Assembly (NCBI RefSeq): GCF_028641065.1
Contig: NC_073382.1
Location: forward strand, 51,770,001 to 51,834,000
DNA from: Leucoraja erinacea
Taxonomy: Eukaryota
Direction: 5' to 3'
Length of the DNA: 64,000 nt
Shown: positions 4,901 through 62,031 of the stretch, one piece after another
Layout of the letters: every line of letters begins with the position of its first letter
Numbering within the stretch: position 1 is the stretch's first letter
Translations under genes and position numbers: made by a program
Notes under the pieces: model-generated
The model's input: only the letters and a program-made list of their open reading frames with translations
Databases searched by the model: none
Told to the model about the DNA's origin: nothing

Positions 4901-7900
4901 CGTTACCTGCAGAGCATGTGCCCGATGATTTCTAGTTCTTCCAGTATTTGCAATCTGCATAGTGTGGGGTATAGAGAGTAGACAGACTCCAGGCTTCCTT
5001 TGCACAATTCTTCAACTTCTTTAATTCTATCATCACAATAAATTGAAACTCAATTAGTTGGAATGGTTGAAACACAACGTATGAAATATAGTTGAGGTGA
5101 GCAATTGTATCAGATATTGGCAGGCTCAGGTTTTACAGGACTTCTAACGACAAGGAAAATGGAAATTTTCTTTATTATGCCAGAAGTAGATAAAATCTTG
5201 AACAAATCATCTGCAATGAGTGAAACGTTACCTGGCAACCTTCAAAACCTCATGGAAGGCAGAGAATTCTTGGTCTTTCAGAGACTGCAAAGCATGGTAC
5301 ACAGATTCATGATACCCAGGTCCCGAATTCCCACCTCTGGGAAAAGACAACAAAAAGTTTCCAATCATTTTGGAAAACAAAGGAAGAATCAAAGAACATG
5401 AGCATCGGAAAAGTGGAGCAAAATCCGTAGCATAACATTTGCCTTCCTAATGGGCTCGTTATCTACAGGTTAATTTTTTTGTGATTTATGTATAGGGACC
5501 CATAATCTGAATGACGTCTCTCTATTGTTAAAACACATTTTGCTCTTCTATTCTTCTTATTGAAGTGGACTCCATCTATATCTTCTTTGTTTATGCATTA
5601 CAGTACGGAAACAAGCCCTTCAGCCCAACTTATCCATGCCTACAAGGTTTTATAACTAAGCTGGTCTCATTTGCCTTTGTTTGTATCTGATCACCTCTAA
5701 ACCTTTCCTATCCACATGGGGAGCATCCACGAGAAAAGCAGTAGCGCACTCGTAATAGACACGTAACTCCAAAATAAAGCAGTGGGCTAGAGAGAATTGT
5801 TTATGTAAGTGTGTGTTCATGTAAATCGCTTATTGCATAAGTCGGGGAGTGCCTGCATTTTGATTGTGATCTGGTTTGAAGTCCAAAATCTGTATTTATA
5901 ATTAATGCATGTATGATAAGATGACAATTTTACCATAAAAGTGAGCGCAATTCAGTTTATTGCAGCAGAAAACGTTGTATTTACTTGCTTGGAGGGATAG
6001 GATCCCACTGCATGTTTCTCCAGGCTGCCTGGAAGCGGATTTCCTGCAGTTCCTCACACCATTCTGTGTTTTCAACTTCAAGCCCCTTTAGATATGTAGT
6101 TAGAATATGGCATAGTCCAAAGTTCTGTAAAGCCTTCAATAAACAAGTACAAATTAATCTTGGTTATCATCAAACTGAGCATGTTAAATAGAAAAATTCA
6201 CGCAGAAAAGCAATGTCCACAAATAGATTGGCATCTTATTAATCAATAGTTGTCAGTTGACGGCACTATCTTGACTCCCTCCATTACTTAGCTTATAATT
6301 GTGATATCAACATACAGCAACTGCAACTAACCCCAAGTAGATGTTAGCTATTTTTCACGAGTAGATTATTTTGGTTTCATGGTTTTTTGTAATTGAGGAG
6401 TGAGTGAGGTGCTACTGTTTAATGCATCAAATTGCGTCCCAGATATTTAGTATTCAGCATCAAGGCACATTGTCCCAATTTCGGAGATAGTTGTGGAACA
6501 CAATAACATGAAATGGTGGCTTCATTTTGAAGACAAGAATTTTGACTTTATTTTTATTAGTGCTCAGCTGTGTGTGTAACTTGTCAAGTAGTTACAAACT
6601 TCCGCTGATTCAATAAAATTTAAGCAATGGAAGTCATCTGTTATGAAAAAAAATTGTTTGCATGTTATCCAGTCAAATCATACAAAGTATGAATACAATC
6701 AAACCACATATAAGCAACAGGAAATGCAGAGAAAAAAATACCAGACGTGGAAGGGCCACAATTGGTACAATTGATCACTTCCCTCAGGACTGTCAAAGCT
6801 GCCAAAGCCAGACATAAAAACAGCTTTTTTCCCCCATGAGTAGTAGCTCTACTCAATAACCAAAAATCTGCAGCCTCCTTTTGCTCTGGTATTTTATTTA
6901 ATTCCCATGTTTAATCAATGATGTTTTATTATTAATGTTTAATTTTTTATGTATCATTCTTAACTGTCACTATATGTCATGTCACTTGTGGGCGGAGCAC
7001 CAAGGCAAATTCCTTGTATGTGAATACTTGGCCAATAAACTTATCCATTCATTCATTCACAATGAGAAAGCATGGGTGACGTTTCGGGTCGAGACCCTTC
7101 TTCAGATTGAAGAAAGACATTATATAAATGCACGCCTTTCTTTTCTCATCAGGATTTTTTGTAACTCTGAGCTTTTATCTTTTAGAAACATAGAAAATAG
7201 GTGCAGGAGTAGGCCATTCGGCCATTCGAGCCTGCACCGCCATTCAATATGATCATGGCTGATCATCCAACTCAGTATCCTGTTCCTGCCTTCTCTCCAT
7301 ACTCCCTGATCCCTTTAGCCACATGGGCCACATCTAACTCCCTCTTAAATATAGCCAATGAACTGGCCTCAACTACCTTCTGCGGCAGAGAATTCCAGAG
7401 AATCACCACTCTGTGTGAAAAACATTTTCCTCATCTCGGTCCTAAAAGATTTCCCCCTTATCCTTAAACTATGACCCCTTGTTCTGGAATCCTTAAACTA
7501 TGACCCCTTGTTCTGATGCTAATGAGGAAGAAACCAAAGGAGCAACTGGGCTGAAATAGTTTTGCTCCCAATTGCTAGTGATTATTGAATAAATAATTAT
7601 GAAATTATTCTTATTGAATTTTCATTACTTAGGTTGCTGGTTGAGTACTACAGTAATGGCATGACTAAATCAAAAAGAATATTCTTTCAGGCTCATTCAC
7701 CTCACCACAAATACAATGCAATGCACCAGTAAATCAAGATAACATTTTGTAATGTTAAGGGCCTGTCCCACTAGGGCGTCATTTGCGCCTCATTTACGCG
7801 ATATCATTTACCCGTTGTGATGAGCACGTGATGCGCGTATGGCGAGGCATGGTGGCGTAGGCAGTTAAGCGCGGTTGCGCGCGGCGCCCCAGGATTTTGG

Positions 7901-10900
7901 GATTCACAAAATCTTCGAGCTCCACCTGCGTGACGCGCAAATGACGCCCAAGTGGGACCGGCCCTTTACTCCTTCAGTGATATCTGTAGCACATGAGGAT
8001 TGCAGGCAAGTAGCTGGGCATTTAAAAAGCTGCCAGAAATAGTGAAAATACCCAATACCATAGAATGGACTGCCATGGAAAAGTTCCCTAACATATTCCG
8101 CAGATTTACTGAACGAAAACAGTGCAGATCACTTTCTGATTTTCCATCATCTAAACTAGGCAATTATCGTGGTTATAGTTACATAGTGCATGTTTAATAC
8201 TAGTGTTAAGACCCCTATGAAAATAAACTACCTGGACAATACCAGCTTGGCGTGTAGAGACAGGAAGATTCATTTCAATGTCATATGTTACAAGAGCCTT
8301 ATCCCACAGCACTTCATGCTCATATGTTCGAACTCTGTTACATTGAAAAACAAAATATTAAACATTAATAACATCTAAAGAATTAGGATTGGTTGCAAAT
8401 GAAATTAAATATTAGCGGGCATTTTGTGCAGGAATATCTCTTGTATATTGTCTGAAACCAGTTTCTTGGAAATATTACATTCACCTGTGCACATGATAAA
8501 TATTTGCAGATGTGCATCTTAAGTTCAGTTATACGAATACCAACTCCCATTTTGAAGCTCTAGAAATACTGAGCAAAACATGATCGATTAAGAAAATGGT
8601 ATTCCCCATAGTCTACAAATCTATTCCAATCCTGCTTACTCCGTATCGTTAGAGATTCACCTTTATTAAATATCTAATTATCTATGTTCCACTGCATAAT
8701 TATATTTTCTATCCAATCACCTTTAGTAAGTAATTTATTTCTCATGTCCTTGCAGTTACCATCTGATGCTCTTGTTGGATCATGGCAGGGAATTTGAAAT
8801 ATGTTGTCCTGGGGCCACCCTTCAAAGGACAATCCTGGGATAACATGGTCTAAATAGTATAATATTAAGTCCAGGCATGTACTTAACTTGCGTTCATCTT
8901 TGGACCTCCATGCACTGTACTGAGAGCTAACACGCTGCAGCTTGACCTCAGTGACCTGTGCTTGGTCCCTGACACTGCCCCCCTCCCCCGCATACTCAAA
9001 CTCTCCTCTGACATTGGTCCTGATCTTCCCATCAGTGTACTGCTGCTTCCCAATTCCAGGACCTACTTTCCCAACGTGCTATATTTCATCCTAACCATTC
9101 CAACTACCAAGTGTTGGTCTCTTTCTTTCAATACACACTGCCCGATTCTGCTTATCTTCCAAGATCAAATGACTGTCTCAGAATTCCCATCTGTACTTTC
9201 CCCACCAAGGTCACATTTCTTCCCCAACTACCAAGATTCAGACTCTGCCCTTATCCCCCACACCCCTACCCTGTAAGCTGTGCTCTGATGTCCCCCAACC
9301 TTAGGCTTGGGGCCGTCAACATCTTGATACCAAATTCAAAATAATTGCAGGGAAGTGAATTTATCACTGCTGCAAAGTCTAAGAAGTACGGTAGGATTTA
9401 TAGACAATAATGGGAGAAAGAATACAGAATGTAACTAAATCAGTCAGTCATAGTGGGAAGTATCAATAACCTCAGGTTTTACCTGGCAAGTGGGTGCAAC
9501 ATCTTCCCTCCACCACAGCCATATAAACTATCAGGTTCTCCTATACTTCTGTAGACTTCAATCAGTAGCTCCTGTTGGAAAATACAACATCTTAAAGACG
9601 AACAAGATATTTTATCAACTTACTTTCTCTGATGCAGTAATACTATTTCCTGGAGCCTTTTGACCTGCCAAAGATTGCCCTTATTTATTATGAAAACTTT
9701 TGTTTATTATTAATTCAAAGGTGCAGACATGGATAAAGGCTATCTGACTGAGTTGGTTGTTGATGGTATGCGATCTGGTGATGAGACCTCATGGAATATT
9801 GGATTTTGCTCTAGATAGTAAGCAGAGAATTGGTCTTCTGTTTGGCAGACCCTCAGAGTTGAGGACGATATATTTTCACTGAGTAATAGAAAATGCATAT
9901 TCCCAAATTTCTTTCATATGTGATGACTTTTCCACATCAGCTATCACAGGAACATGACAGAGCAACAGGTAGGAAGGTTAAGAATGACCATGGTGATGAT
10001 GTTCCCTGCGTCCTACAGGAGACGGCTCTGTAACTACCATGACTAAAGGCATAATAATGATGTATCTTGGCATTTCCTCCTTTTTCTAGACATGGGTGTA
10101 TGTGAGACTTACATTTCTCTGCTAAATTTTAGAGCCACAAAGGATACCATCCACTTCTGAGACATTTGGATTTGGTATCTTCAAATTCTCATTGGTCAGG
10201 GGTGGAGACTAGGTCAGATGCTATTGGACGGCGTCAAGGTCAAGGACACAGTCGGGGTTGAGTAGTTATTTTAAGTATTCACCCCAAAAGATGCTGAATA
10301 CTTCTCTGTCTTGGTAAATTCATTTCTGTTCTTGTTCACTTTTGCTCGCTATCATAATCTCCTTGCTTGCAGAGGAGATTAGTTTCACTTTGCATCACGT
10401 TGGCACGGTTATTGAAGGCTGAAAGGCCTGTTCCTGTGCTGGTACATGTCCAATGTCATCTATTATTCATAGATATTTCACTGTTATAAGACGAGGTTTT
10501 AGAGATATAGAATGGAAACAGGCCCTTTGGCCCACCGAGTCCACCCTAACCAACAATCACCGTTCACACTAGTTCTGTTTTCTCAGAAGAACAGTGCTGG
10601 GGTGTTTGACCTCCATGGGGAACATGGAGAGATGACTTTTTGGATTGGGACACTTCTTCATTTGAGAACTTCTTCAAAGTCGGCCTACCTTGAGGAGATT
10701 TCACAATGGAGCAGGGCAGTGTAGAACCTTATTTTTGTAAACCAGTATCTGCAGTTCATTATATAAACATTTAAGTTCTTGTCTCGGAGACTTTGTTGCA
10801 GATAGGAGATGCAAGAGCCATTTACAAAGTTTCTGTACCTGTAAGCTAATCCCCGTTTCTTCTCTGCTTTTACTGCTCAAGCTGGAGATTGTTTGTTCTT

Positions 10901-13900
10901 GGCTGCCTTCATCAAACTTTAAGATGCGAGCTGCTCTGCGAGAACTCCTAAATACCATAAATAATTATTTTTAAATGAATTGTGTTACTGAAGCATCTTT
11001 TGCAAGTACAGGTATTTGTTACCAGTTATACAAAAAATAACCATTGACATGTTAGTTTTGCAGCTACTGCTACATTTTATTTTTACACTAAACATTCCTT
11101 TGGGTTAATTTTTGACCATCAAAAATTATTAAGTTTGGGCTGAGTGGGAAATTAACATTTGGAACCCAAATCCAAGCCATACTTCATCCTTTAATTTAAT
11201 TTAGAGATACAGTGTAGAAACAGGCCCCTCGATCCACTGAGTCTGAGCCCACCAATAATCACCTATTCACACTAGTTCTATCTTACACACCAGCGACAAT
11301 TTAGAGGCCAATTAACCTACAAACCTGCACGTCTTTGGAATGTGGGAGGTAACACCCAGAGAAAACCCACGTGATCACAGGGAGAACGTAGAAAGTCTGT
11401 ACAGACAGCACCCGTAGTCAGGATCGAACCTGGATCTCTGCTCCTGCAAGATCAGCAGCTCTATCATTGCGCCACGGTGCTGCTCACTTTACTGAAGGCA
11501 TGAGATGGACAACTAAAAAAAATTACTCTCAGAATGTGGATAGATCAATGAAAGCTTTTACGCGGGCTACAAAACTTCATTTCAACGTGCAGCGGTATGA
11601 ACATTGACTTCACTAACTTCAAATAGCCCTTGCTTTCCTCCTCTCTCCATAGGGAGGTTGCACGGCAGTCGAGGTCACGACCCGTGACCTGTAATGTTGC
11701 CATGCAACGCCAACTGGAGTACTCACGGTGAACTGCAGGTAAGCATTTACTATTGGTGCCAGCACAGAGGGCCCTTCTTCTGTCCCAGCATCTGGGGGGG
11801 GGGGGGGAGGAGGTCAGGGGTGTCGGTGGCTCTGGGTGGGCGGAGGGACGAGACCGTCCCCAACTCTGCTGCAGCTTCCGGAGCTGCGGCTCCGTGTGTG
11901 TGCGCTGCCGACCCACAGCCCGTGACAGTGCGGCCCACAGGGGGAGACGGGGCAGAGAGCGGCCGTAGCCGGACAGCGCTGACCCCAGGGGGGGTGGGGG
12001 AGGGGAAGAGTGGGGGCTGTCCCGATGGATGCGCTCCTTCTGCCGCTTACACCTTGTTGCTCGCGTTCAGAGCAACGATACTCGAGCATTTGGTTCAGAG
12101 CGCTCAGTCACCCTCCACAATTATTTACAGCACAACAATTGACCGTTTTGGCAGCTTTTAACAGGTAAGAAAGTACGCGTTTCGTGTGTTAAGTGTATTC
12201 CGAGGCTGCCATGTCCTCCAGATGGATTGAGCTGCTCCATGCTTCACGCCCTTTGACCCGATGACCTTACGCGCAACCCCCGTATACCCTCCTGCTTCCC
12301 CCACCAGTCTTACTGTCTCCAACTACATTCTATCTCTGTCCCACCCAATCCCCTGACATCAGTCTGAAGAAGAATCTCCACCCGAAACATCACCCATTCC
12401 TTCTCTACAGAGATGCTACCTGTCCCGCTGAGTTACTCCGGCATTTTGTGTCTATCTTTAGTTTTGAGAAATTAGGCACATCTCAATTTCTCCAGTTATG
12501 CTGGTTACCAGTCAGTGATCCTGCTTCAGTTTTACTTAACTCTCGAGAGCCAGAGCACATATGTTTAAAGTGAGGGGAGAAAGATTTAATAAGAAACTGA
12601 GGGATAACTTTCTCCCCCACAAAGGATGGTGAGTGTATGGAAGGAGCTGCCAGAGGTACTATCACAACATTTAAGAAACATTTAGATAGGTACATGGATA
12701 GGATAGGTTTAGAGGGATAAGAGCCAAATGCAAGCTGGTGTAGATGAGACATGTTGGTTGTTGTGGACTTTGGGCCGAAGGGCCTGTTTCCATGCTGTTT
12801 GACTTTATGACTCTCAATTTTTGTTCATGCTCTGCCATAGAATTTAAAAGGATAATTAAAATCTTCTGGTCTTAACTTTTAGATGTCTCCCTTAGTTGAT
12901 CCCTTAGTGATCCTTTGTTTGCAATCTTAACCTATTATTCTTTCAATGTTTACTAACTTTAGCAAACAAAAATACAATGAGCCCCAATACATTCACTATA
13001 GACTGAGGCTCCACATTAAAAAAAATAACAAGGTTCCAGATAAATTCACATAGCTGTCAAATCAAAACAGAAAGCTGTTGATTAAATATATATTATTTCA
13101 GACAATTTAAGAACACAGTGAAACTTTTGCAAAATATGGTAAAGTTTAAGATGGCACTATTTTATATTTTAGGGCAAATTGTTATTTGTTTGTGGACACA
13201 CTGAAGGTCATAGCAGATAACTGAAGAAGGGTTCCAATCCGAAATGTCACCCATTCTTTTTTTCCTGAGATGCTGCCTGATCCATTGACTTACTCCAGCA
13301 ATGAGTTTATCTTCAATATAAACCAGCATCTACAGTTCCTTCCTACACATGACTTTTTATGATTTGCTACAATTTAAAGGGAGTACCGTTTCAACTCTTC
13401 CTCGTCAGATCTGATTTTATCAGCATAGATTTCTGCATAAAGCAAGGCTGTAAAGTGAGCTGCACATGACTGGGCTGTCAAAGCAACCTCCAAATAATTC
13501 AGATCCAGCCAGAAGTTGTCATCCCATACAGTGCTCAGCTGATGTCTGAAATGAGAAAAATATCAAAAATCAAAAATAAAAGTTTTCTCTTGACTTAATT
13601 TCAAACATTTAAAATTAAACTAAATCAATGATGCTGTATCAACTTGAAAAATATGATAGTATTGATGCAACATTAAAATAAAATCACTGTGTTCAGGTTA
13701 TTCATTCCAGTAACAGTCTGATAAACAAGGCAAGATGCAACCATTCACCAATACTCATAGGGACTTGAATTCTTATGAAGAGTTGCAGCTTTTTTTGCTA
13801 ACCTACTTTTCTTCTTCAGATGCTGAATGATCTGTTGTGACATTTCAGCATCATCTGCTACGTAAATTAAAAGAATATGAACAAATTTTGTTGAAACCTT

Positions 13901-45360: not shown

Positions 45361-45419
<59 letters not shown>

Positions 45420-51400: not shown

Positions 51401-54400
51401 GGGATACAGCAATGACGTGTAAATGAAAGTAGTCATGTTTAGTATTTTGTGGCATATCCTTTGCATGCAATAACTGCTTGAAGTCTGTGATTCATGGACA
51501 TCACCAGTTGCTGGGTGCCTTTTCTGGTGATGCTCTGCCAGGTCTGTAATGCAGCCATCTTTAGCTTATGCTTGTTTTGGGGGCTGGTCCCCTTCAGTTT
51601 TCCCTTCAGCATATAAAAGGCATGCTCAATTGGGTTCAGATCGGGTGATTGATGTGGCCACTCAAGAATTGACCATTTTTTAAGCTTTGAAAACCTCTTT
51701 AGCAGGTTGCTTTAGCAGTATGTTTGGCATCATTGTCTTGCTGTAGAAATAACCGCGGGCCAATGTGTTTTGAGGCATTTGTTTGAACTTGTGCAGATAG
51801 GATGCGTTTAAACACTTCAGAATTCATTATGCTACCATCAGTAGTTGTATCATTAATGAAGATAAGTGTGCCAGTACCTTCAGCAGCCATACATGCCCAG
51901 GCCATAACACCCCCACCACCATGTTTCAAACATGGGGTGGTATGGTTTGGATCTTGGGCAGTTCCTTCTCTCCTCCATACTTTGCTCTTGCCATCACTCT
52001 GGTAGAAGTTAATCTTCGTCTCATCTGTCCACAGGACCTTTTTTTTCCAGAACTATGGCTGCTCTTTAAAGTATTTCTTGACAAACTGTAACCTGACCAT
52101 CCTATTTTTGCAGCTATCAAGTCGCTTGCATCTTGCAGTGTAACCTCTGTATTTCTGTTCATGAAGTCTTCTGTGGACAGTGGTCATTGACAAATCCACC
52201 CTGACTCCTGAAGAGTGTTTCTGATCTGTCGGACAGGTGTTTGGGGATTTTTCTTTATTATGGAGAGAATTCCTCTGTCATCAGCAGTGGAGGTCTTCCT
52301 TGGCCTGCCCGTCCCTTTGCAATTAGTAAGCTCACCAGTGCTCACTTCTTAATGACTTTGCAAACAGTTGATTTTAGTAAGCCTAAGGTCTGGCTGATCT
52401 CTAACAGTTTTATTCTTGTTTCTCAGTCTAATAATGGCTTCTTTTACTTTCATTGGCACAACTTTGGTCCTCATGTTGATAAACAGCAATAAAAGTTTCC
52501 AAAGGTGATCAAAAGACTGGAGGAAAGACAGTGCTGAGAGCTCTCTTATACCTGCATTAAGGAGGCATTTAAACACACCTGAGCAATTACAAACACCCGA
52601 GAAGCCTTGTGTCCCAAATATTATGGTGCCCTGAAATGGGGGGGACTATGTATAAACACAGCTGTAATTTATACATGGTGAAACCAAAATGTATAAAAAT
52701 GTCCTTTAATAAAATCTGACTATGTGCACTTTAACCATATGTGCTTTTTTTCTATTACAATTCTCAAATTATGGAATACAGAGGCAAATAAATAAATTAT
52801 GGGTCTTTGTCCCAAACTTCATGGAGGGCACTGTATGTTTCGATAAGATTCCCTCTCATCATAAATTCCAGTGTATACAAGCCCAGCCATTCTTTCAACA
52901 TAAGACAGTCCAGCCATCCCTGGAATTAACCTCGTGAACCTACGCTGCGCTCCCTCAATAGCAAGAATGTCCTCCCTCAAATTTGGAGACCAAAGCTGCA
53001 CACAATACTCCAGGTAAGGTCTCATTAGGGCCGTGTGCAAGTGCAGAAGGACCTCTTTGCTCCTATAATCAACTCCTCTTGTTATGAAGGCCAACATGCC
53101 ATTAGCTTTCTTCACTGCCTGCTGTACCTGCATGCTTACTTTCAGTGACGGATGCACAATAACACCCAGATCTCGTTGTACTTCCCCTTTTCCTAACTTG
53201 ACACCATTCAGATAATAATCTGCCTTCCTGTTCTTGCCTCCAAAGTGAATAACCTCACATTTATCCACATTAAACTGCATCTGCCCACTCACCCAACCTG
53301 TCCATGTCACCCTGCATTCTCATAGCATCCTCCTCACAGTTCACACTGCCACACAGCTTTGTGTCATCTGCAAATTTGCTAATGCTACATTTAATCACTT
53401 CATCTAAATCATTAATGTATATTGTAAATAGCTGCGGTCCCAGCACTGAGCCATGCTGTACTAGTCACTAGTCACTGCCTGCCATTCTGACAGGGACTCG
53501 TTTATTCCTACTCTTTTTTTCCTGTTGGCCAACCAATTTTCTATCCATGTCAGTACCCTACCCCCAATACCATGTACTCTAATTTTACCAACTAATCTCC
53601 TATGTGGGACCTTATCAAAGGCTTTCTGAGGGTACAGGTACACTACATCCACTGGCTATCCCTTGTCCATTTTCCTAGTTACATCCTCAAAAAATTCCAG
53701 AAGATTAGTCAAGCATGATTTCCCCTTCTTAAATCCATGGTGACTTGGACCGATCCTGTTACTGCTATCCAAATGTGCCGCTATATCATCTTTTATAATT
53801 GACTCAAGTATCTTCCCCACCACCGATATCAGGCTAACAGGTCTATAATTCCGTTTTCTCTTTCCCTCCTTTCTTAAAAAGTGGGATAACATTAGCTACC
53901 GTCCAATCCACAGGAACTGATCCTGAATCTAAAGAACATTGGAAAATGATCACCAATGCATCCACGATTTCTAGAGCCACCTCCTTAAGTACCCTGGGAT
54001 GCAGACCATCAGGCCCTGGGGATTTATCAACCTTCAGTCCCATCAGTCTACCCAACACCATTTCCTGCCTAATGTGAATTTCCTTCAGTTCCTCTGCCAC
54101 CCTAGATCCTCTCGCCACTAGTACATCTGGGAGATTGATTGTGTCTTCCTTAGTGAAGACAGATCCAAGGTACCTGTTCAACTCGTCTGTCATTTCCTTG
54201 TTCCCCATAATAAGTTCACCGGTTTCTGTCTTCAATGGACTCATATTTGTCTTAACTAATTTTTTCCTATTCACATACCTAAAGAAGCTTTTACTATCCT
54301 CCTTTATATTCTTGACTAGCTTACCTTCGAACCTCATCCTTTCTCCCCGTATTGACTTTTTAGTTATCTTCTGTTGCTCTTTAAAAGTTTCCCAATCCTC

Positions 54401-57400
54401 TGGCTTCCCGCTCATCTTTGCTATTTTACAGCAAAGATTTTCGGCCCGAAACGTCACCTATTTCCTTCGCTCCATAGATGCTGCTGCACCCGCTGAGTTT
54501 CTCCAGCATTTTTGTGTACCTTTGCTATTTTATACTTCTTCTCTTTTATTTTTATACTGTCCTTGACTTCCCTTGTCAGCCACGGTCGCCTCTTATTCCC
54601 CAATGAAGTACAAAACCAAATATTATAGAGCTTCACCCACCATATGCAAGTGGGGAGGTTTTGAAATGTTGTGGTTGATGTCCTCAATTAATGACAGTAG
54701 CTTTCTTCTAATGTCTGCACACCTGAATGAAAGTGCATGTATCTGACCTGCTGCTGTGCAGCAACAGATGAATCGGAGAATATCGAGCAGGAGGAAATCA
54801 TGCTTTGTCAAATTGTCTTCAGATAAAATGTTCTTTGCTCCTGAAAGAGAGTTGAAAGAGAAAATGATGAAAGTGCAACATTATGTTTCTACGTAAATTA
54901 TTTAAGAAAATGGCAAAGTGGTAAAATTAATCCGTTAATATAATCAATGGCTCTATTCTGTAACAATAGAAAGCTATTTTAAGTCGAAGAGTTTCTTTCC
55001 CTTAATAAAAATGTATTCGAGTCTGAACTAGCTTTCTATCGTTAAATAATTGAGTCTGTTGCATTGGCTTTTTTAGCATCAATGTGAAGCATGTGTCTGA
55101 AGCATCAATTTATCTTATTTTAAAATTGTAGTAACAAAGATTCTATGTATTTTATTTCTTTATAAAATGTCAACCTTCTGGATCAGGTTCCACAGTCACT
55201 CCTTTTCACCTCACCCATGTGACTGCTACTTTTGAATCTATAAAGAAGATTAGTGTAACATGAAAAGCATAATTTCTGAGAGAAATATCTTCACAAATCC
55301 ATCCACAATTATGTATCATCATCTCCAGCCCTATTTAGGTGCCTGTAACATACTATAAGGGCACGTGGTAGAACCAGGTTCAGTAACAATGCCCAAGAGA
55401 CATTTAGACAAACACACGCATGGGCAGGAAATAGAAGGATCGGGACCACGTGCAGGCAGATGGGATAAGTTTAATTTGGCATTGTGTTAGGTGCAGACTT
55501 GGTGGGCCAAAGGGTCTATTCCTTCGCTGTACTTTTCTATGTTCTATGGAGGCAAGCACTTTCTTGACCAGGGATGCTGAAATTACTTAAATATCTCTCG
55601 TCAAGAATAAGTGTATAAGCACAACGTGCAACTTAGTACAGGATACTGAGTTGGATGATCAGCCATGATCATATTGAATGGCGGTGCAGGCTCGAAGGGC
55701 CGAATGGCCTAATCCTGCACCTAATTTCTACGTTTATAGCCTGTTCAGTTGCAGTAGATTGTCGTAAAATGAGCCAATGTAGAGCTAATATTTAACATCT
55801 AATAATCTTATAAATGTCATACCTATTCCAACCGATGAGTCATTGTTTTCATTATAATCTCCTCCTTCAGGGCCTTTGTCGTTATCGTCATCAAAGAGGT
55901 CTCCGGATCCATGTCCCTCTGTTTCCATTAAATCATCTTGAAAATCGTCCTTTGCCTCAAAAGCATCACATGGTTTTCCAGTGGGAAATGCCTGTAGTAG
56001 ATACACCAGTGTTTACACTGAAAGCTATGGATTAGCAGAGAAAATATAATTACCATGTTTAATAACTTTCTGTGCAAACTATTAATAGTGCCAAACACCG
56101 TGGATAGATGTGGGGAACTTGTAAGACTTTGGAGTTTAGAGATACAGCCTGGAAACAGGCCTTCGGCCCATTGAGACTGCGCCGACCAGCGATCCCCATA
56201 CACTTAACACTACCCTGCACACTAGAGACAATATTACAATTTTGCCTAAGCCAATTAACCTACAAACTGGCACGTCTTTGTAGTGTGGGAGGACACCAGA
56301 GAACCCGGAGAAAACCCACGTGATCACAAGGGAGAGCGTACAAATTGGATGTTCTTTCCTCAAGATCATTTAATAAATATTGCAGTGTGGCATAGACCGC
56401 CCTAAGCAACGTAGATCCTGATTGCATGCTCAGACAAAGTTTGAAGAACCTGCCGCAGCTTCTCCCATTGTTTTGAGGATGAGAATGTATGACTGACCTG
56501 CAAGAGGCTAATGTCAAATTGGTGCTCCATTCATGCAGCTTTTGGCTATAGCCATGATTGCATACAGTACAGAAAGATTATGCAGAACCTGCCTTCTCCC
56601 CATATCTCTGGACTCCACAATCTTCAAGAGCCCTATCAAGCTCTCTCTTGAAAGTGGCCAGAACCGTCCTCTACCGCCCTCAGAGGCAGAGAATTCCACA
56701 GACTCACAACTCTGTGTGAAACCCCATAATAAAAAAGCGGAAACAAACGTTTAGAAATTTTTGCAAAGTAATTAGAAACAAAGAACAAAAATATCACATT
56801 TAGATAGGTATTCAGACCCTTTACTCAGTACTTTGTTGAGGCACCTTTGGCAGCGATTACAGCAGGGGTCGGCAACCTATGGCCTATAACCCGAAATCAC
56901 CCGGCCCGCAGGCATATTTTTTTTTAGTCCGATATGCGGTACTGCTGTCTCTGGAAGACGTCGATGTTGAGTGTGGGGGAGTCCCAGCTGTGACGTGTTT
57001 TCCCTTAGGTAGGTCTGTGGGCAGTAGGGTGCCTCAGGCAGGCTGTCCCGGGATGAGGAGTCCGTGCTGCAGTTGATGGCGTCATTGGAGATGAGTGTGC
57101 TGTCCAGGCTCTCGTTGTCCCCATCAGACAGTTCGGCCTCCACCTTGCTGTTGCGACTGGCCTCTCCGGGAGGGGGTCCAGGCGGCGGGGAACGGGCGGG
57201 GGAGGGACCTCGTGGACGGGTAGGGGAGGCAGGGAGGGTTTGGCCTCTGCCTCGTTGTAGCCTAGCTGCCGGCCTAGCAAGCCCCACTCAGACCGGTCGC
57301 TCATGTCCACTGAACTGTTGCTGGGCGGCTCGATGGTGAGCAGCGGCAGGTGGGCAGCACGACGCCGGTAGTCCTGGCACTCCGAGCAGGCAGCTGCCCT

Positions 57401-60400
57401 CCTGGCCCCTGTCTCCCCTGCCTCGCCCTCCCACACTTTGGGCACCAAAGGCTCGGTGGAGGCTAGCGTTGACCGGGCTGGGCTCCCTCTCCCTCTCCCT
57501 CCTCTAAGTATAGTGCCTTTGAAACAAAACTACAACTGTATTATTACCTCCATTTATGGCGATAGATGTGGCCCGCCATCCGCACAGACATGGGTGGTTG
57601 CCCACCCCTGGATTACAGCCTCGAGTCTTCTTGCGTATTACGCTACAAGCTTGGCACACCTGTATTTGGGTAATTTCTACCATTCTTCTCTGCAGATCCT
57701 CTCAAGCTCTGTCAGGTTGGATCGGGAGCCTCGATGCACAGCTATTTTCAGGTCTCTCCAGAGATATTCGATCGGGTTCAAGTTTGGGCTCTGGCTGGGC
57801 CACGCAAGGACATTCACAGACTTGTCATGAAGCTACTCCAGCGTTGTCTTGGCTGCATGCTTAGGGTCGTTGTCATGTTGGAAGGGGAACCTCTGCCCCA
57901 GTCTGAACGTGCTCGGGAGCAGGTTTTCATCAAGGATCTCTCTTTACTTTGCTCTGTTCATCTTTTCCTCGATCCAAACTTGTCGCCCAGTTCCTGCTGC
58001 TAAAAAACATCCCAACAGCATGATGCTGCCACCACCATGCTTCACCGTAGGTATGGTATTGGCCAGGTGATGAGCGGTGCCTGGTTTCTTCCAGACGCGA
58101 CACTTGCCATTCAGGCCAAAGAGTTCAATCTTGGTTTCATCAGACCAGAGAATCTTGTTTAGGTGCCTTTTGGCAAACGTCAAGCGGGCTGTCATGTGCC
58201 TTTTACTGAGGAGTGGCTTCAGTCCGGCCTTAAAGGCCTGATTGGTGGGATACTGCAGATATAGTTGTCCTTCTGGAAGGTTCTCCCATCTCCACAGAGG
58301 AACTCTGGAGCTCTGTCAGAGTGACCATTGGGTTCTTGGCCATCTCCCTGACCAAGGCCCTTCTCCCCCGATTGCTCAGTTTGGCCGGGCAGCCAGCTAT
58401 ATGAAGGGTCCTGGTGGTTTCAAAGTTCTTCCATTTAAGAATGACGGAGGCCACTGTGCTCTTCAGGACTTGCAATGCTGCAGAAATTGTTTTATACCCT
58501 TCCCCAGATTTGTGTCTCGAACATAATCCTGAGTCAGAGGTCTACGGACAATTCCTTCGTTATCAAGGCTTAGATTTTGCTCTGACATGCACTGTCAACT
58601 GCGGGACCTTATAAAGACAGGTGTGTGCCTTTCCACATCATGTACAATCATTTAATTTACCAGTGGTGGACTCCAATCAAGTTGTAGAAACATCTCTAGG
58701 ATAATCAATGAAAATAGGATGCAACGAAGCTCAATTTTGAGTGTCACAGCACCTGCTGCCCACAGACCTACTTACAGGAAACACGTCACAGCTGGGACTC
58801 CCGCACACTCAACAAAGGCAGTACCGCATCGGACTAAAAAAAAAATATGCCTGCAGGCTGGGTGATTTCGGGTTATGGGCCATAGGTTGCCGACCCCTGC
58901 TGTAATTGCTGCCAAAGGTGCCTCGACAAAGTACTGAGTAAAGGGTCTGAATACTTATGTAAATGTGATATTTCAATTATTTCTTTAATTATTTTGCAAA
59001 AATTTCTAAACACCCGTTTTCGCTTTTTTATTACGGGGTATTGCGTGTAGATTGATGAAAAATTTTTTTTTAATCCATTTTAGAATAAGGCTGTAACATA
59101 ACAAAATGTGGAAAAAGTGAAGGGGTCTGTATACTTTCTGAATGCACTGTAATTGCATGGTTTGTAGTATTGAGAAGCCAGAAGAATTTAAATTCAGATT
59201 ACACAATCAGCAACGCACTTAAAAAAAATTATCTTTCAATCTTAAGAACTTGCAATTAGTTTCTTACCAGCCGTCGACAAACTTCAACGAGGTCATTCAT
59301 AAAACTTGCTGCGAATAGTTGAAGAAAGAGAACAGATGATTGCTTCTTTGGCCAGTGCTGCTAAAATGATTGAAGAAATAGTTTACGTCACGGAGATAGA
59401 ATTTTTCTGGCATATTTTTGAAATACTAAATTGGATGGTAATTTTATGAGATCAACATAGATAAAATACATGGCAAATTTATAAATATTAACCAATTACA
59501 AAAGACAATAATATTAATATGTAATTCTCATCTTAAACAAGAAAATCCAATAAATAATAAGAGTTCTGACTCAAAATGTAACCTGTCCATTGCTGCCTGA
59601 TCTGCTGAGTTTTTCCAGCACTTTTCAATAAAATAGCAATTATAAATCAATTTTACATATACTATACTATATAAAACAATACTATATAATATATAAATCA
59701 ATAATATATCTATCTATATACTTTTAAAACAGTGTGTGCATATGTGTGTGTGCGCGTGCATGCGTGTGAGAGAGAGAGATTTTGCCTCCTCGTTAATCAG
59801 ACGCCGAAACGGGGAAATGTTTACATATTTCAGTAGAGATTTTCCTTGTGATTTTAGAAACCCACTCCTCTGTAAATTTGGTCAGTTATTTCCCCGACAT
59901 TTTTTATTAAATTCGTTGACCAATCTGACCTTTTTAAAACAAAATCTGACCGTTGCCCAGCTGCTAACGTTACAATGACGGTGACATTTTTACATATTCT
60001 GGTAGAAATTTTCCTTATGATTTAAAAAATCTGTAAATCTGGTTGATTATTTCACGAGTTATTTGCTAAAATTTATCAACAATCTGACATTTAAAAAAAA
60101 TATAACGGCTGCCCAGCTGCTGACCTCACAATGCCTGTCCTTGTGGCCCGTCCACCAATCCTCACCAGATCCCCCCCCCCCCCCCCCCCCCGGATGAATG
60201 CAGCTGCTGTCAACGCGCGCATGCGCAATTTTCAGGTCCACAAATTAAGAACCCCCCGTTCTTCAAAAAGCATAGAAAAGAACGAGAAATTTCTGCTGAT
60301 CCCCAGGTCACCGGCACTCACGTGTTGAAGAGCTTTCTCCTCGTTGCCAGCGCAGCTTGTAAAAACACGCCCACTCACTCCAGCTGTGGGTTACCAGAGA

Positions 60401-60671
60401 GTCAGGCCGGTTCTGTCTCTCACCACTTTTCGCAGCCCACTCACCAGCCCTGCTCCCCTAAAAAACCATCCTACCCCTCCCCCCATCTCTCTGCCCCCCC
60501 CCCTTCTCTCTCTCTGCCCTCGCTCTCTATACGTACCTGCAAGTTGAGGGGTATGCGTCAGTGGATGGGGCGGTTATGGGGTAAAAGGAGAACATTAATA
60601 ATATTAATATAATATCAAGGGGGTAGTTAGTGTGTGTGTACGGGGGGTAGTTAGTTAGAGTGTGTGTGTGT

Positions 60672-60712
<41 letters not shown>

Positions 60713-61673
60713 GTTAATGTGTGTGTGACCCCCCCCCGGAACCGAGCGTTGAGGGGACGGTACCAAATGGGTCCCCCTTGGTCTAGTAGTAACTAAAAAT
60801 GTAACAGCCTCATATCAATGAAAGATAGTAGATTTAAGTGAGCACCTTATAAATGTCATAAGCACTTTCATAAATACCCCATGTCCTAAAAATTAATTAT
60901 TTTAAAATGGATTGGCAAAGGTAAAACTGGTAATAGTGAATATCACAGTAAGACTCCAAATAATAGCAATAGCACTAATTAATCAGTAAATTTAGTGTCA
61001 CTGGGTAAAGAACAGTATTAGGAGTCCCGAATATCTTGCTTTTCTCTGAATATGAAAAGACATAAGTAAACAGAACAATGTTTCATGAGGAATGGTGTTT
61101 TTAATTTAGTCTATGGAATCTTAAGGTGAGACTCAATCTAGGGCCTCTGACTTAGCAACTGAAACCACAATTATGTAAATTTAATGTCATTATACAGACT
61201 ATATATGATTAGTTATATGTATTCTTCCCCTCTGTTATCATACTTCTGAACAGGTCCTTCCATGAGGTTGGGTACAGTCCCAATTCTCCAACCTACATTG
61301 CGGGCATTAGACTTTTTCTTTGGAACTCTTATGCTACAATGCTAAGAACTATATTTTCGTATCTTTCTACCTTTTGTACTTGTACCGTTTGGCATGATTC
61401 TATTCAAGTATATTTTCTGATTTGATTGGAGAGAATAAAAACAAAAGATTTTCATTGTACCTTATGTGACAATAATAAACCTTAACCTAAATAGGCTGAA
61501 TGTATTTGCATAATGCGGTTGTAGACAATTGATTGTATTGAACAGAATACCTTAGTGTGCGAGTGTAGACATTTTGTGCACACATTAATCAGTGTTTTCA
61601 GAGAGTTGAGAACCTCTTCATTAAGATCATTTCGCGTTGTAGAAATGTGTTCACCAACATTCTGCATAAAAGA
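1728..61673 (-). CDS. ATM: ATM serine/threonine kinase, partial multi-exon gene (35 exons, equivalent to human exons 15-49; the gene extends beyond both window ends)
   Basis: Spliced translation gives ATM-specific motifs in order: [90 protein letters not shown]. All junctions are GT-AG with consistent phase, and most exon sizes match the human sizes I recall. Confidence 0.98.
2065..2184 (-). CDS. ATM: ATM exon (~human exon 48), 120 nt
   Basis: tcttag|[40 protein letters not shown]|gtaag. Confidence 0.95.
2918..3070 (-). CDS. ATM: ATM exon (~human exon 47), 153 nt
   Basis: ttccag|[13 protein letters not shown]...[30 protein letters not shown]|gtaag. Confidence 0.95.
3296..3530 (-). CDS. ATM: ATM exon (~human exon 46), 235 nt
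   Basis: tttcag|[17 protein letters not shown]...[19 protein letters not shown]...LARAAKNSQ|gttca. Confidence 0.94.
3733..4738. mobile_element. Non-autonomous TIR DNA transposon, superfamily unassigned
   Basis: 18-nt TIR AGTAGcaATGTTACAAAA / reverse complement AGTAGgtATGTTACAAAA; ATA on both flanks; no ORF. Confidence 0.7.
4907..5026 (-). CDS. ATM: ATM exon (~human exon 45), 120 nt
   Basis: gatag|[39 protein letters not shown]|gtaac. Confidence 0.95.
5232..5336 (-). CDS. ATM: ATM exon (~human exon 44), 105 nt
   Basis: tcccag|[34 protein letters not shown]|gtaac. Confidence 0.93.
5985..6133 (-). CDS. ATM: ATM exon (~human exon 43), 149 nt
   Basis: ttgaag|[49 protein letters not shown]|gtaaa. 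Confidence 0.95.
6773..7058 (+). mobile_element. Rex1/Babar-like LINE 3' fragment
   Basis: Encodes [16 protein letters not shown]; ends ccaataaact+(CATT)n; acaat on both sides. Confidence 0.6.
7183..7515 (-). mobile_element. CR1 LINE 3' fragment with a ~27-nt tandem duplication at its 5' junction
   Basis: tagaaacatagaaaataggtgcaggagtaggccattcg tail, shared with copies at ~39475, ~50822 and ~55630. Confidence 0.75.
7758..7965. mobile_element. PIF/Harbinger-type MITE
   Basis: TIR AGGGCCTGTCCCACT, long palindromic arms, TTA TSD (7755-7757, 7966-7968). Confidence 0.85.
8232..8334 (-). CDS. ATM: ATM exon (~human exon 42), 103 nt
   Basis: taacag|[34 protein letters not shown]|gtagt. Confidence 0.95.
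9483..9571 (-). CDS. ATM: ATM exon (~human exon 41), 89 nt
   Basis: caacag|[29 protein letters not shown]|gtaaa. Confidence 0.95.
10839..10947 (-). CDS. ATM: ATM exon (~human exon 40), 109 nt; contains the S1981-equivalent SQ
   Basis: atttag|[36 protein letters not shown]|gtaca. Confidence 0.92.
11193..11483 (-). mobile_element. tRNA-derived V-SINE (elasmobranch HE1-like)
   Basis: Minus strand: tRNA-like head with B box GGTTCGATCC, V-domain (ACGTTCTCCC...GTGGGTTTTCTC), CR1-type tail ...CTGTATCTCTAAA. Confidence 0.85.
11651..12283. mobile_element. Non-autonomous TIR element with AT TSD (ISL2EU/Harbinger-like), nested in a Penelope-like 3' fragment
   Basis: AGGGAGGTTGCACG / reverse complement ACGGGGGTTGCGCG; AT flanks; interrupts a Penelope-like 3' region (11588-11650 and 12286-12460). 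Confidence 0.55.
12545..12812 (+). mobile_element. CR1-type (HER1-like) LINE 3' fragment
   Basis: gttgaggcaggtactat / gacaggtacatggataggatagg / gggccgaagggcctgtttcc motifs, repeated at ~16325, ~35645 and ~46700. Confidence 0.7.
13387..13545 (-). CDS. ATM: ATM exon (~human exon 39), 159 nt
   Basis: tttcag|[44 protein letters not shown]...LK|gtact. Confidence 0.95.
13898..13985 (-). CDS. ATM: ATM exon (~human exon 38), 88 nt
   Basis: gtcag|[28 protein letters not shown]|gtttc. Confidence 0.93.
14108..14674. mobile_element. PIF/Harbinger-type MITE with internal CGACA repeats
   Basis: TIR AGGGCCTGTCC(A/C)ACTTAGGCGA; TAA TSD (14105-14107, 14675-14677). Confidence 0.85.
16761..16938 (-). CDS. 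ATM: ATM exon (~human exon 37), 178 nt
   Basis: catcag|[21 protein letters not shown]...[12 protein letters not shown]|gtaat. Confidence 0.95.
17644..17820 (-). CDS. ATM: ATM exon (~human exon 36), 177 nt
   Basis: catag|IPELL...[44 protein letters not shown]|gtaat. Confidence 0.94.
18360..18510 (-). CDS. ATM: ATM exon (~human exon 35), 151 nt
   Basis: tgccag|[25 protein letters not shown]...[16 protein letters not shown]|gtaat. Confidence 0.95.
18684..18913. mobile_element. Fold-back Penelope-derived short retroposon with two hammerhead-like cores
   Basis: Inverted arms around ttcagacagcaaagtctgaa; 14-nt TSD ataatctatc(a/g)ctc at 18670-18683 and 18914-18927. Confidence 0.75.
19564..19735 (-). 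CDS. ATM: ATM exon (~human exon 34), 172 nt
   Basis: tttcag|[20 protein letters not shown]...INNALIDQ|gtgag. Confidence 0.95.
19811..20743 (-). mobile_element. GC-rich non-autonomous LINE-derived retroposon (Rex1-like 3' tail)
   Basis: 5' accggaagtggcggcgc; 3' atttcgttcagaccgaaaggtctgaatgacaaataaagg+(ATCTA)n; related copies at 27720, 36814 and 44090. Confidence 0.65.
20890..20986 (-). mobile_element. Penelope-derived short retroposon with hammerhead-like core
   Basis: gtCTGATGAatggtctcgacctGAAACGTC...; perfect 12-nt TSD tattatcaagtg (20878-20889, 20987-20998). Confidence 0.75.
21261..21557 (+). mobile_element. V-SINE inserted in a Penelope-derived repeat
   Basis: cggtagagttgctgcc...gggttcgaa head, V-domain, ctaaactaaac tail. 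Confidence 0.85.
22231..22326 (-). CDS. ATM: ATM exon (~human exon 33), 96 nt
   Basis: cttcag|[31 protein letters not shown]|gtgag. Confidence 0.93.
23146..23278 (-). CDS. ATM: ATM exon (~human exon 32), 133 nt
   Basis: tttcag|[44 protein letters not shown]|gtaac. Confidence 0.95.
24570..24835 (-). mobile_element. V-SINE
   Basis: Same family as 11193-11483. Confidence 0.85.
25322..25650 (+). mobile_element. Penelope-like element 3' fragment: GIY-YIG C-terminus, UTR and hammerhead-like motif
   Basis: Encodes [28 protein letters not shown]; followed by gtCTGAAGAagggtctcgacccGAAACGTC at ~25615-25643. Confidence 0.75.
25866..26030 (-). CDS. ATM: ATM exon (~human exon 31), 165 nt
   Basis: ttccag|[30 protein letters not shown]...[13 protein letters not shown]|gtaaa. 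Confidence 0.95.
26280..26722 (+). mobile_element. CR1 LINE 3' fragment
   Basis: Encodes [24 protein letters not shown]...[13 protein letters not shown] (CR1 ORF2 C-terminus). Confidence 0.85.
26761..26945. mobile_element. Fold-back Penelope-derived short retroposon
   Basis: ~60-nt near-perfect inverted arms (agacacaaaatgctggagtaactcagcgggacaggcagcatctc); aattcttat direct repeat on both flanks. Confidence 0.75.
27315..27489 (-). CDS. ATM: ATM exon (~human exon 30), 175 nt
   Basis: ttatag|[19 protein letters not shown]...[27 protein letters not shown]|gtaag. Confidence 0.95.
27720..28035 (-). mobile_element. GC-rich non-autonomous retroposon, 5'-truncated
   Basis: Shares the 3' hairpin and the CCATCACAG hairpin with 19811-20743. 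Confidence 0.6.
28318..28517 (-). CDS. ATM: ATM exon (~human exon 29), 200 nt
   Basis: aacag|[11 protein letters not shown]...[18 protein letters not shown]...[18 protein letters not shown]|gtcag. Confidence 0.95.
29165..31245 (-). mobile_element. RTE-clade LINE (BovB-like), 5'-truncated and frameshifted
   Basis: Fragments [47 protein letters not shown]; (GAT)n tail at 29165-29179. Confidence 0.9.
31419..31545 (-). CDS. ATM: ATM exon (~human exon 28), 127 nt
   Basis: ttcag|[42 protein letters not shown]|gtaag. Confidence 0.95.
32001..33690. repeat. Scrambled imperfect tandem duplication with Penelope GIY-YIG and UTR pieces
   Basis: 32001-32098 ~ 32972-33070; 32281-32333 ~ 33124-33177; 32478-32650 ~ 33213-33365; caaattggaggaa occurs three times. 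Confidence 0.7.
32100..32218 (-). CDS. ATM: ATM exon (~human exon 27), 119 nt; atypical A-rich acceptor
   Basis: aaaaag|[25 protein letters not shown]...GNFV|gtaag. Confidence 0.88.
34100..34705 (+). mobile_element. Old CR1 LINE 3' fragment
   Basis: Encodes [18 protein letters not shown]...[10 protein letters not shown]. Confidence 0.8.
35062..35314 (-). CDS. ATM: ATM exon (~human exon 26), 253 nt
   Basis: ttttag|[11 protein letters not shown]...[16 protein letters not shown]...[15 protein letters not shown]|gtgag. Confidence 0.95.
36229..36398 (-). CDS. ATM: ATM exon (~human exon 25), 170 nt
   Basis: cttag|[30 protein letters not shown]...[15 protein letters not shown]|gtaaa. Confidence 0.93.
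36682..37833 (-). mobile_element. V-SINE (36682-36813 and 37677-37833) split by a GC-rich non-autonomous retroposon (36814-37676)
   Basis: SINE halves rejoin. Insert has 5' ttccggtaggcggcgc, an (AGC)n run at ~37321-37365, and 3' atttcgtttggacc...ggtccaaatgacaattaaa+(TTGACTC)n. Confidence 0.75.
37981..38151 (-). CDS. ATM: ATM exon (~human exon 24), 171 nt
   Basis: cttcag|[20 protein letters not shown]...[30 protein letters not shown]|gtaat. Confidence 0.95.
38479..38765 (+). mobile_element. Solo LTR (Gypsy-type)
   Basis: TG...CA termini (tgtggcg...cgctaca), AATAAA, 4-nt TSD ctag; motifs shared with the LTR at 1123-1429. Confidence 0.8.
39869..41510 (-). mobile_element. Tc1-family DNA transposon, full length, transposase disabled
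   Basis: TA flanks, ~210-nt TIRs; transposase 41104-40090 in three frames ([15 protein letters not shown]..., [23 protein letters not shown]...WPSQSPDLN). Confidence 0.95.
42312..42432 (-). CDS. ATM: ATM exon (~human exon 23), 121 nt
   Basis: ctctag|[40 protein letters not shown]|gtaac. Confidence 0.93.
44090..44680 (-). mobile_element. GC-rich non-autonomous retroposon with L2-like 3' tail
   Basis: 3' ...gaaaggcgcccataaatatt+(TAT)n; shares the central hairpin and cccgatgttgaag motif with the 27720 family. Confidence 0.55.
44803..44933 (-). CDS. ATM: ATM exon (~human exon 22), 131 nt
   Basis: cttcag|[10 protein letters not shown]...[27 protein letters not shown]|gtaat. Confidence 0.93.
45353..45413. 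repeat. (CT)n microsatellite
   Basis: Direct observation. Confidence 0.95.
46022..46097 (-). CDS. ATM: ATM exon (~human exon 21), 76 nt
   Basis: aatag|[25 protein letters not shown]|gtata. Confidence 0.92.
47159..47310. mobile_element. 152-nt MITE derived from the Tc1 family at 51203-52833
   Basis: TA|CAGTGCCCTCCATAATG...CATTATGGAGGGCACTG|TA. Confidence 0.9.
48016..48162 (-). CDS. ATM: ATM exon (~human exon 20), 147 nt
   Basis: gtccag|[21 protein letters not shown]...[12 protein letters not shown]|gtagg. Confidence 0.92.
48547..48629 (-). CDS. ATM: ATM exon (~human exon 19), 83 nt
   Basis: ttacag|[27 protein letters not shown]|gtaag. Confidence 0.93.
50061..50326 (-). mobile_element. V-SINE
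   Basis: Same family as 11193-11483. Confidence 0.85.
51203..52833 (-). mobile_element. Tc1-family transposon (second family), degenerate, nested in CR1
   Basis: TIR CAGTGCCCTCCAT(A/G)A.GTTTGGGACAAAGACC; [26 protein letters not shown]. Confidence 0.92.
54429..54519 (+). mobile_element. Penelope-derived short retroposon inserted in CR1
   Basis: 13-nt TSD ctttgctatttta (54416-54428, 54520-54532); cggcccGAAACGTCacctatt... Confidence 0.8.
54641..54840 (-). CDS. ATM: ATM exon (~human exon 18), 200 nt
   Basis: ...[23 protein letters not shown]...[12 protein letters not shown]...HLHM|gtggg. Confidence 0.93.
55823..55991 (-). CDS. ATM: ATM exon (~human exon 17), 169 nt
   Basis: ctacag|[35 protein letters not shown]...SSVGI|gtatg; acidic segment as in human ATM. 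Confidence 0.88.
56128..56345 (-). mobile_element. V-SINE, 5'-truncated
   Basis: Same family as 11193-11483. Confidence 0.8.
56722..59149 (-). mobile_element. Tc1 transposon (same family as 39869) with hAT insertion and rearranged right end; left tip deleted
   Basis: Transposase fragments 57611-58565 ([11 protein letters not shown]); right end ...GAATGCACTG|TA. Confidence 0.9.
56863..57610. mobile_element. Non-autonomous hAT transposon
   Basis: TIR CAGGGGT(C/G)GGCAACC; 8-nt TSD gattacag (56855-56862, 57611-57618). Confidence 0.9.
59268..59357 (-). CDS. ATM: ATM exon (~human exon 16), 90 nt (93 nt with the upstream NAGNAG acceptor)
   Basis: ttttagcag|[30 protein letters not shown]|gtaag. 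Confidence 0.88.
59709..60786 (+). mobile_element. Non-autonomous Helitron-like element
   Basis: A|TC start (tctatctatatact); GGGGAC/GTCCCC hairpin at 60753-60776 then CTAG|T; internal ~160-nt tandem repeat and (TG)n. Confidence 0.7.
61551..61673 (-). CDS. ATM: ATM exon (~human exon 15), 123 nt
   Basis: ttatag|[41 protein letters not shown]|gtattc. Confidence 0.9.
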
Positions 61674-61849
61674 CTATAAGATGAGAAAAATAAATTAAGT
61701 TTAGTTTAGAGCTACAAGCATGGAAACAGGCGCTTCAGCCCACCGAGTCCGCGCCGACCACCAATTCCCGCACACGAACAGTATTTTACACACACTAGTG
61801 ACAATTTACAATTTTACTGAAGCCAATTAACCTTCAAACCTATGTATTT

Positions 61850-62031
61850 AAGAAGAAACTGCAGATGCTGGAAAATCGAAGGTACACAAAATGCTGGAGA
61901 AACTCAGCGGGTGCAGCAGCATCTATGGAGCGAAGGAAATAGGCAACGTTTCGGGCCGAAACGTTGCCTATTTCCTTCACTCCATAGATGCTGCTGCACC
62001 CGCTGAGTTTCTCCAGCATTTTTGTGAACCT
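61850..62031. mobile_element. Fold-back Penelope-derived short retroposon inserted in a V-SINE fragment
   Basis: ~70-nt near-perfect arms around tttcgggccgaaa; cct(t/c)caaacctat repeated on both flanks. Confidence 0.75.

Follow-up and report, generated by a model that had tools for sequence, protein, structure and literature searches.

The window analysed here, 64,000 nucleotides of Leucoraja erinacea (assembly GCF_028641065.1, contig NC_073382.1, positions 51,770,001 to 51,834,000), is occupied over most of its length by the minus-strand gene ATM; four exons from 61673 to 2080 match ATM. Its introns contain, as an initial annotation of the window had stated, dispersed copies of a short repeat built around a hammerhead-like core. 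Sequence comparison shows that the repeats correspond to the last ~95-135 nt of an abundant autonomous Penelope-like element (PLE), a stretch made up of a minimal hammerhead and a tail. Positions within the repeat are counted from the C of the CUGA core as position 0, and the predicted ribozyme cut falls between +27 and +28.

A profile built from the window copies gave 34 matches in the window and none in the reversed window; a second profile assigned 18 to the plus and 16 to the minus strand. Every position named in the initial annotation belongs to a family copy, and four window copies fit its strict motif exactly. Most copies are decayed: CUGANGA...GAAA..UH is retained in 10 of the 34, and the core, all four pairs of stem II and the CG palindrome are intact together in only three (7064-7110 and 45782-45891 on the minus strand, 25610-25655 on the plus strand). 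Sixteen matches belong to eight head-to-head arrangements, three of which have a common target site duplication (TSD). The list of short copies had to be revised, since at 12363, 25617, 33613 and 38830 the pseudo-long terminal repeat (pLTR) extends upstream, and the copies at 54440 and 61945 have no core front. Two of the single-copy TSDs stood, with 12 nt (20878-20889/20987-20998) and 13 nt (54416-54428/54520-54532). The one placed at 18684 has 17 nt with two mismatches (18667-18683/18911-18927) and encloses an inverted pair instead of a single copy. Tail-less copies ending near +39 to +41 occur three times in the window (7064-7110, 25610-25655 and 28898-28940).

The parent element was traced from the remnant at 25322-25655. 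Its GIY-YIG C-terminus, annotated from the start, is present by sequence at 25322-25410; the short remnant itself had no match in a Pfam search, and DNA similarity ties it to full elements. The remnant retrieves copies in which the GIY-YIG C-terminus is followed by a ~220-nt pyrimidine-rich untranslated region (UTR), the hammerhead and then the annotated tail with two end points. Walking upstream led to a reverse transcriptase (RT) and then to near-intact young elements, with open frames of 750-844 aa containing RT and GIY-YIG. In one frame of 755 aa, RVT_1 (E 5.6e-6) and GIY-YIG (E 1.5e-3) were matched, both below the Pfam cut-offs; it forms one open reading frame (ORF) that carries GIY-YIG at its C-terminus, and the motifs YIDD and IYC..C..C..IYIG are visible in the element ORF. 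Full elements terminate in the hammerhead-tail unit. At loci L141 and L260 the unit also stands directly in front of the ORF, so that it occurs at both element ends, as a pLTR in a partial tandem; the ORF likely starts at about +160, as read from L141. An inverted 5'-truncated partner and an optional 30-40-nt tail at one end, both features of endonuclease-containing (EN+) PLEs, were found as well. A C-X4-C-X2-C linker precedes the GIY-YIG domain in L141, L142 and L144, and in the available text of PMC8557442 a CX2-5CxxC linker sets Neptune/Nematis apart from Penelope/Poseidon. Typed by this motif, the parent is a Neptune-type EN+ PLE; an earlier Poseidon-type label was dropped after the linker had been checked.

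The family is abundant throughout the genome. Eighty evenly spaced 10-kb stretches contained 308 matches, which cover 3.7% of bases at a density of 0.385 per kb; scaled to 2.19 Gb, this extrapolates to about 840,000 matches. Head-to-head pairs account for 114 of the 308. One young 38-mer alone has 46,046 exact genome matches.

Ends and arrangement of the copies

End mapping used 109 young copies chosen on the tail alone: the spaced stretches (1.2 Mb) supplied 69, pattern loci 35 and the window five. Their 3' ends lie at two places, +91 to +97 or +125 to +132. At the 5' side, 37 copies stop at +3 to +42; of the other 72, 46 stop at -6 to +2 and the last 26 are scattered to -1407. Expressed per base, the stop rate amounts to 7.1% at -6 to +2, 0.85% at +3 to +42 and 0.12% at -500 to -21. 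A second, more 3' anchor placed 28 of 40 copies at the same edge, in a set that partly overlaps the first; for older subfamilies the upstream part of this mapping is unreliable, the pLTRs differing from the reference. The 5' ends of long copies are evenly spread upstream. In 95 solo copies of all subfamilies the match to the element declines stepwise from T(-1) in 84 over G(-2) in 66 and A(-3) in 60 to C(-4) in 35, reaching background by -5/-6. At the predicted cut (+28 to +35) no excess of 5' ends was observed, with 3 of 64 young copies and 6 of 58 copies of an older subfamily and neither above the neighbouring bins; this binning left out low-identity rows (4/74 and 20/92).

TSDs flank 13 of the 15 pairs and 30 of the 68 solos; a swapped control of the solos gave two. 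Together with the sharp edge, this bears out for the young copies that they have their own TSDs and commonly begin at the core. The derivation from Penelope and mobilisation by a Penelope RT, as annotated, are likewise supported by the TSDs, the common 5' edge and the identity with the end of the autonomous element. Among 36 solos with exact TSDs, eight have a gap at the 3' junction, and 14 of the 28 others overlap the element by at least two bases, where 17% is expected. Of 15 young pairs, 14 combine a long with a short 3' end, whereas solos split 32:36 (p=0.001). The arms of a pair often meet at one of the unit's two palindromes, which lie around -1 and in stem II. In the 80 spaced stretches, neighbours are arranged head to head in 63 cases versus 13 direct.

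Some insertions share their surroundings. Young copies at L093, L161, L163, L167, L201 and window 61829-62041 occupy the same short site in another abundant repeat; this host repeat resembles the element 3' ends at that site, which is a possible target hot spot. The same insertion with the same flanks was found at two places each for L178/L181, L310/L311 and L344/L345, copied within a larger duplication or host repeat.

Inserts containing the ORF start were also inspected. The ORF-start motif has 633 genome matches, of which 36 distinct loci were read by eye. Most are short permuted inserts with sequence from +100 to +300 in front of a hammerhead-tail piece. The ORF-start piece reaches the hammerhead front in 12 of these inserts, ten stopping at -6 to +1 and two running past the edge (by eye). 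At L233, L337 and L342 the edge stop occurs twice within a single insertion. The front 180-210 nt of the element are re-copied head to tail with mixed junctions at L233, L236, L240, L337, L342 and L353 as well as in an array spanning L245-L257. The array consists of 177-209-nt units with mixed starts (-3, -1, +21, +31), many of them lacking a core. Such inserts and the array are a possible birth route of retrozyme-like arrays. In addition, the permuted inserts L245, L343, L346 and L350 jump from +31 to +39, just behind the predicted cut. These jumps hint that some templates were cleaved, a post hoc observation that the 5' ends of the solos do not match.

The hammerhead motif and its setting in ATM

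In 1.2 Mb, a descriptor search returned 48 intact minimal cores, 41 of which have the CG palindrome; on the reversed sequence it returned none. The annotation as a minimal type I hammerhead agrees with the core bases, the extra base, the G10.1-C11.1 pair and the palindromic 15.2-16.2 positions. An extra base before stem II, which had been flagged as a doubt, is indeed present in 48 of 48 matches, but according to the consulted part of PMC4209133 it is a known feature of these motifs. No hammerhead model of Rfam was matched, only hairpin look-alikes of the inverted pairs. Helix I comprises 1-2 bp in natural dimers, short of 4-5 bp. Folding predictions do not favour the hammerhead in monomers, and in two natural dimers the double-hammerhead fold lies about 30 kcal/mol above the predicted minimum. 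Stem II showed no two-sided change, only a one-sided U-A/U-G change between subfamilies; none of ten predicted pairs had changed on both sides (32 of 54 eligible copies aligned), the subfamilies being too close for informative covariation. Besides the hammerhead, a conserved 8-bp helix pairs about +46 with about +110 (alignment A1, columns 57-64/119-126) and brackets the first RT start site. No covariation was seen in this helix, which is a candidate protein-recognition structure.

Within ATM only two intact cores lie in the sense of the gene, separated by 38 kb, and the two members of a pair point in opposite directions. Cleavage in ATM is therefore unlikely, as is harm to its pre-mRNA by the ribozyme, and the hammerhead would be mostly inert in these introns. 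The head-to-head pairs are predicted to fold into long intronic hairpins (-166.7 kcal/mol), which would be a more plausible effect on the ATM pre-mRNA than cleavage.

Origin of the short copies

With moderate confidence we propose that the short copies are run-off cDNAs, primed inside the front of the element mRNA, ending where the RNA likely begins and copied from uncut template. The RNA would start near -5 to -3, a few bases before the hammerhead core, and the edge would be its 5' end. The sequence TCAGT near this position is what we take to be an initiator-like motif. In a pLTR an initiator-like site has been noted (PMC3846280, in the part available). The element's own RT would start in most cases from one of two sites in the front copy, where sequence follows the tail, and the cDNA would end by run-off within ~95-135 nt; the long, randomly truncated class would stem from priming at the back copy. 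Both target strands would be primed, one at each site, and the two cDNAs would join head to head, resulting in pairs of one long and one short 3' end. Short copies would mostly be dead ends, since no sequence lies behind their tail, and the ribozyme would have been copied uncut.

Several observations weigh against this proposal. Four RNA runs, probably from related species, gave mostly passively transcribed copies in other transcripts and no common molecule start, and none of the sequencing runs carrying element sequence is annotated as RNA among the matches listed. For the young subfamily, a hand tally over the first 100 of 2,057 matches counted 29 and thus lends no support to an extra G derived from a cap (p=0.36); a small mixed sample had leaned to an extra G at -4 (12 of 25), which the young-subfamily tally did not bear out. 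The share of stops linked to the ORF start (10 of 12) does not clearly exceed the 46 of 72 seen in general, and two segments cross the edge. The edge itself is blurred over ~9 nt, and a 9-nt palindrome as well as an acceptor-like AG coincide with it; pausing or splicing at this place could therefore pass for an RNA end. In a nearest-neighbour test, confounded by locus sampling, short copies had a slight tendency to group with short ones (59 of 95).

The main rival is a pause at the same place: copies would start from the ordinary RNA 3' end, and the RT would halt at a structure or protein-bound boundary before the hammerhead. About a third of the copies pass the edge (26 of 72 young copies; 6,758 of 23,954 cores), and its palindrome and the missing cap signal would suit a pause. 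Yet inserts running from ORF start to hammerhead can only have been copied from a front copy (or a tandem one), and in most of them copying ended at this very edge, at L233, L337 and L342 twice within a single insertion; at the edge no stable fold is predicted. We consider a pause unlikely. If the edge were instead a splice junction, an acceptor before the core would drop the upstream sequence, leaving the RT a spliced RNA template whose first exon is very short or gone. A pyrimidine tract and AG directly before the core fit, as does the D. virilis Penelope intron that ends at helix I (PMC4209133, as far as its available text goes). However, of 95 short copies 66 keep the G and 60 the A ahead of the supposed junction, and otherwise their upstream sequences have nothing in common; no such joint was present among 15 of 175 RNA-read joints, which makes splicing highly improbable. 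Plain random 5' truncation, which would account for the even upstream spread of the long copies and would have reduced the family to fragments of full elements, was ruled out for the edge by an about 60-fold jump of the stop rate compared to upstream; as an overall explanation it is hardly credible.

The initial annotation had favoured a separate non-autonomous lineage, SINE-like (like a short interspersed element) or retrozyme-like, with its own master copies mobilised in trans. Fixed length, own TSDs, the very high copy number and the rare head-to-tail arrays elsewhere in the genome speak for it. The unit has no private sequence, though, being the autonomous element's own end, and five of five young subvariants occur as long, edge-starting and shorter copies. 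It begins at the hammerhead, with no tRNA gene in three element loci and no tRNA, 5S or 7SL match of Rfam in four. Direct neighbours are outnumbered by head-to-head ones, the window holds no head-to-tail array, and in the array found elsewhere the junctions are mixed and many units lack the core. With subvariants common to long copies and no excess of 5' ends at the predicted cut, this lineage is not upheld, and we regard it as improbable.

A further property of the short copies is a stutter at their start. A repeat of the first 7-12 bases precedes 232 of 23,954 young cores, compared to one of 6,758 cores with upstream pLTR (p about 5e-32), for which a looser pattern was used. It concerns about 1% of short copies; in an older subfamily 183 cores are preceded by such a repeat. 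Among 30 stutter copies inspected none has an upstream pLTR and several show three rounds. Since the stutter occurs in short but almost never in long copies, it was made at insertion, at the cDNA end. A control motif at +44 gave 28 matches; most of these units begin at +41, which is also an end point of truncated copies. The stutter may thus be common to all 5' junctions, the control reflecting the same process at other truncation points. Host end-joining could also make such repeats, so that the stutter is no proof of reiteration by the RT.

A more far-reaching version of the run-off proposal is tentative and, to our mind, doubtful. It holds that the stubs are integrated strong-stop cDNAs which map the RNA start to the base, and that the telomerase-related Penelope RT realigns and re-copies at the template end, leaving 7-12-base stutters at short range and 180-210-nt tandem units at long range. 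If the re-copying were true, a single insertion could found an array that bears hammerheads, and Penelope elements would have a direct route to retrozymes.

Relation to known systems and other features of the window

Element, motif, tail and inverted partner are of known kinds, and minimal hammerheads in Penelope ends as well as masses of short copies have already been published. Similar to EN+ PLEs of the Neptune/Nematis type in the accessible accounts (PMC8557442, PMC3846280), the present element has one ORF with RT and C-terminal GIY-YIG, the CX2-5CxxC linker, pLTRs, partial tandems, an inverted 5'-truncated partner, the optional 30-40-nt tail at one end and a variable TSD. In contrast to these accounts, the great majority of insertions here comprise only the last ~95-135 nt with a sharp common 5' edge. 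Our literature searches turned up no description of Penelope stubs with a fixed 5' edge or with the stutter; supplements and subscription papers may hold one.

The motif resembles the minimal type I hammerheads of metazoan PLEs, as described in the part of PMC4209133 available, in CUGANGA, the extra base before G10.1, the G10.1-C11.1 pair, the palindromic 15.2-16.2, the thousands of dispersed singles and the opposite-strand neighbours. Those motifs usually have a helix I of 4-5 bp, whereas here it has 2 bp as in the D. virilis variant, with a stem II of 4 bp and no compensatory changes seen among the closely related subfamilies. Self-cleavage of the metazoan motifs was weak and confined to dimers or mimics (PMC4209133).

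For Poseidon_Ac of Anolis, the available text of PMC11167929 describes internal priming in vitro at two sites matching the tail, with both strands extended and sequence behind the sites required; the motif was cleaved only with protein, and cleavage was dispensable for insertion. This in vitro behaviour speaks for the run-off proposal. As in the present element, the tail is defined by two RT start sites lying downstream of the hammerhead. In Poseidon_Ac, which belongs to another clade, the ORF starts inside the core, whereas here it starts about 160 nt after it. The same text reports no homology between target and priming site, in contrast to a modest 1-3-nt match here (at least two bases in 14 of 28, null 17%). 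Animal non-LTR retrozymes (bioRxiv 10.64898/2026.07.22.740005, in the portion seen) likewise derive from PLE pLTRs with type I hammerheads and resemble the rare arrays here, but they form head-to-tail repeats with a motif in each unit, whereas the window copies are solo or head-to-head pairs.

What makes the copies valuable is the mechanism they document. From hundreds of thousands of junctions, predictions can be drawn at base resolution for those steps in the transposition of Penelope elements that are still open, namely RNA start, priming of both strands at different sites, rebuilding of the upstream repeat and re-copying by the RT at the template end. All of these can be tested with the existing in vitro assay.

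Table 1. ATM and copies of the repeat family in the window
Feature	Position	Strand
ATM, span between the outermost exons checked; gene continues past both	2080..61673	-
Copy with intact minimal core, ATM sense; tail missing, ends near +41	7064..7110	-
Degenerate permuted insert, ORF-start piece (+139..+186) in front of hammerhead copy	10611..10711	-
Hammerhead and tail closing a longer copy; pLTR extends upstream	12359..12471	+
Short solo copy, begins at core, long 3' end	13221..13349	+
Short copy (-) with inverted tail fragment on its 5' side	17260..17437	.
Young-subfamily head-to-head pair, one short and one long 3' end, 17-nt TSD, long hairpin fold	18667..18927	.
Short solo copy, start at -3, 12-nt TSD	20878..20998	-
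Head-to-head pair, old	21115..21241	.
Head-to-head pair, old	25027..25246	.
5'-truncated Penelope-like remnant: GIY-YIG C-terminus, pyrimidine-rich UTR, intact core at 25616, no tail	25322..25655	+
Head-to-head pair, joint inside core, 13-nt TSD	26748..26955	.
Head-to-head pair, tail absent from one arm	28898..29053	.
Hammerhead and partial tail closing a longer copy; GAAA lost	33607..33693	+
Head-to-head pair, arms ~70 nt apart	38763..39056	.
Short solo copy, intact core, ATM sense	45782..45891	-
Short solo copy, core degenerate	46563..46686	+
Young copy cut off inside core (about +11), 13-nt TSD	54416..54532	+
Young head-to-head pair, joint at stem II palindrome, 15-nt TSD	61829..62041	.

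Other repeats occur in the window as well. The elements at 39867-41512 and 56776-59151 are related to each other, have terminal inverted repeats of 140-150 nt and are probably DNA transposons; further ones lie at 51292-52728 and 1494-2850. A separate dispersed repeat, probably 3' ends of a long interspersed element (LINE), was found at 7183-7339, 33694-33814, 39492-39643, 50831-50951 and 55636-55738.

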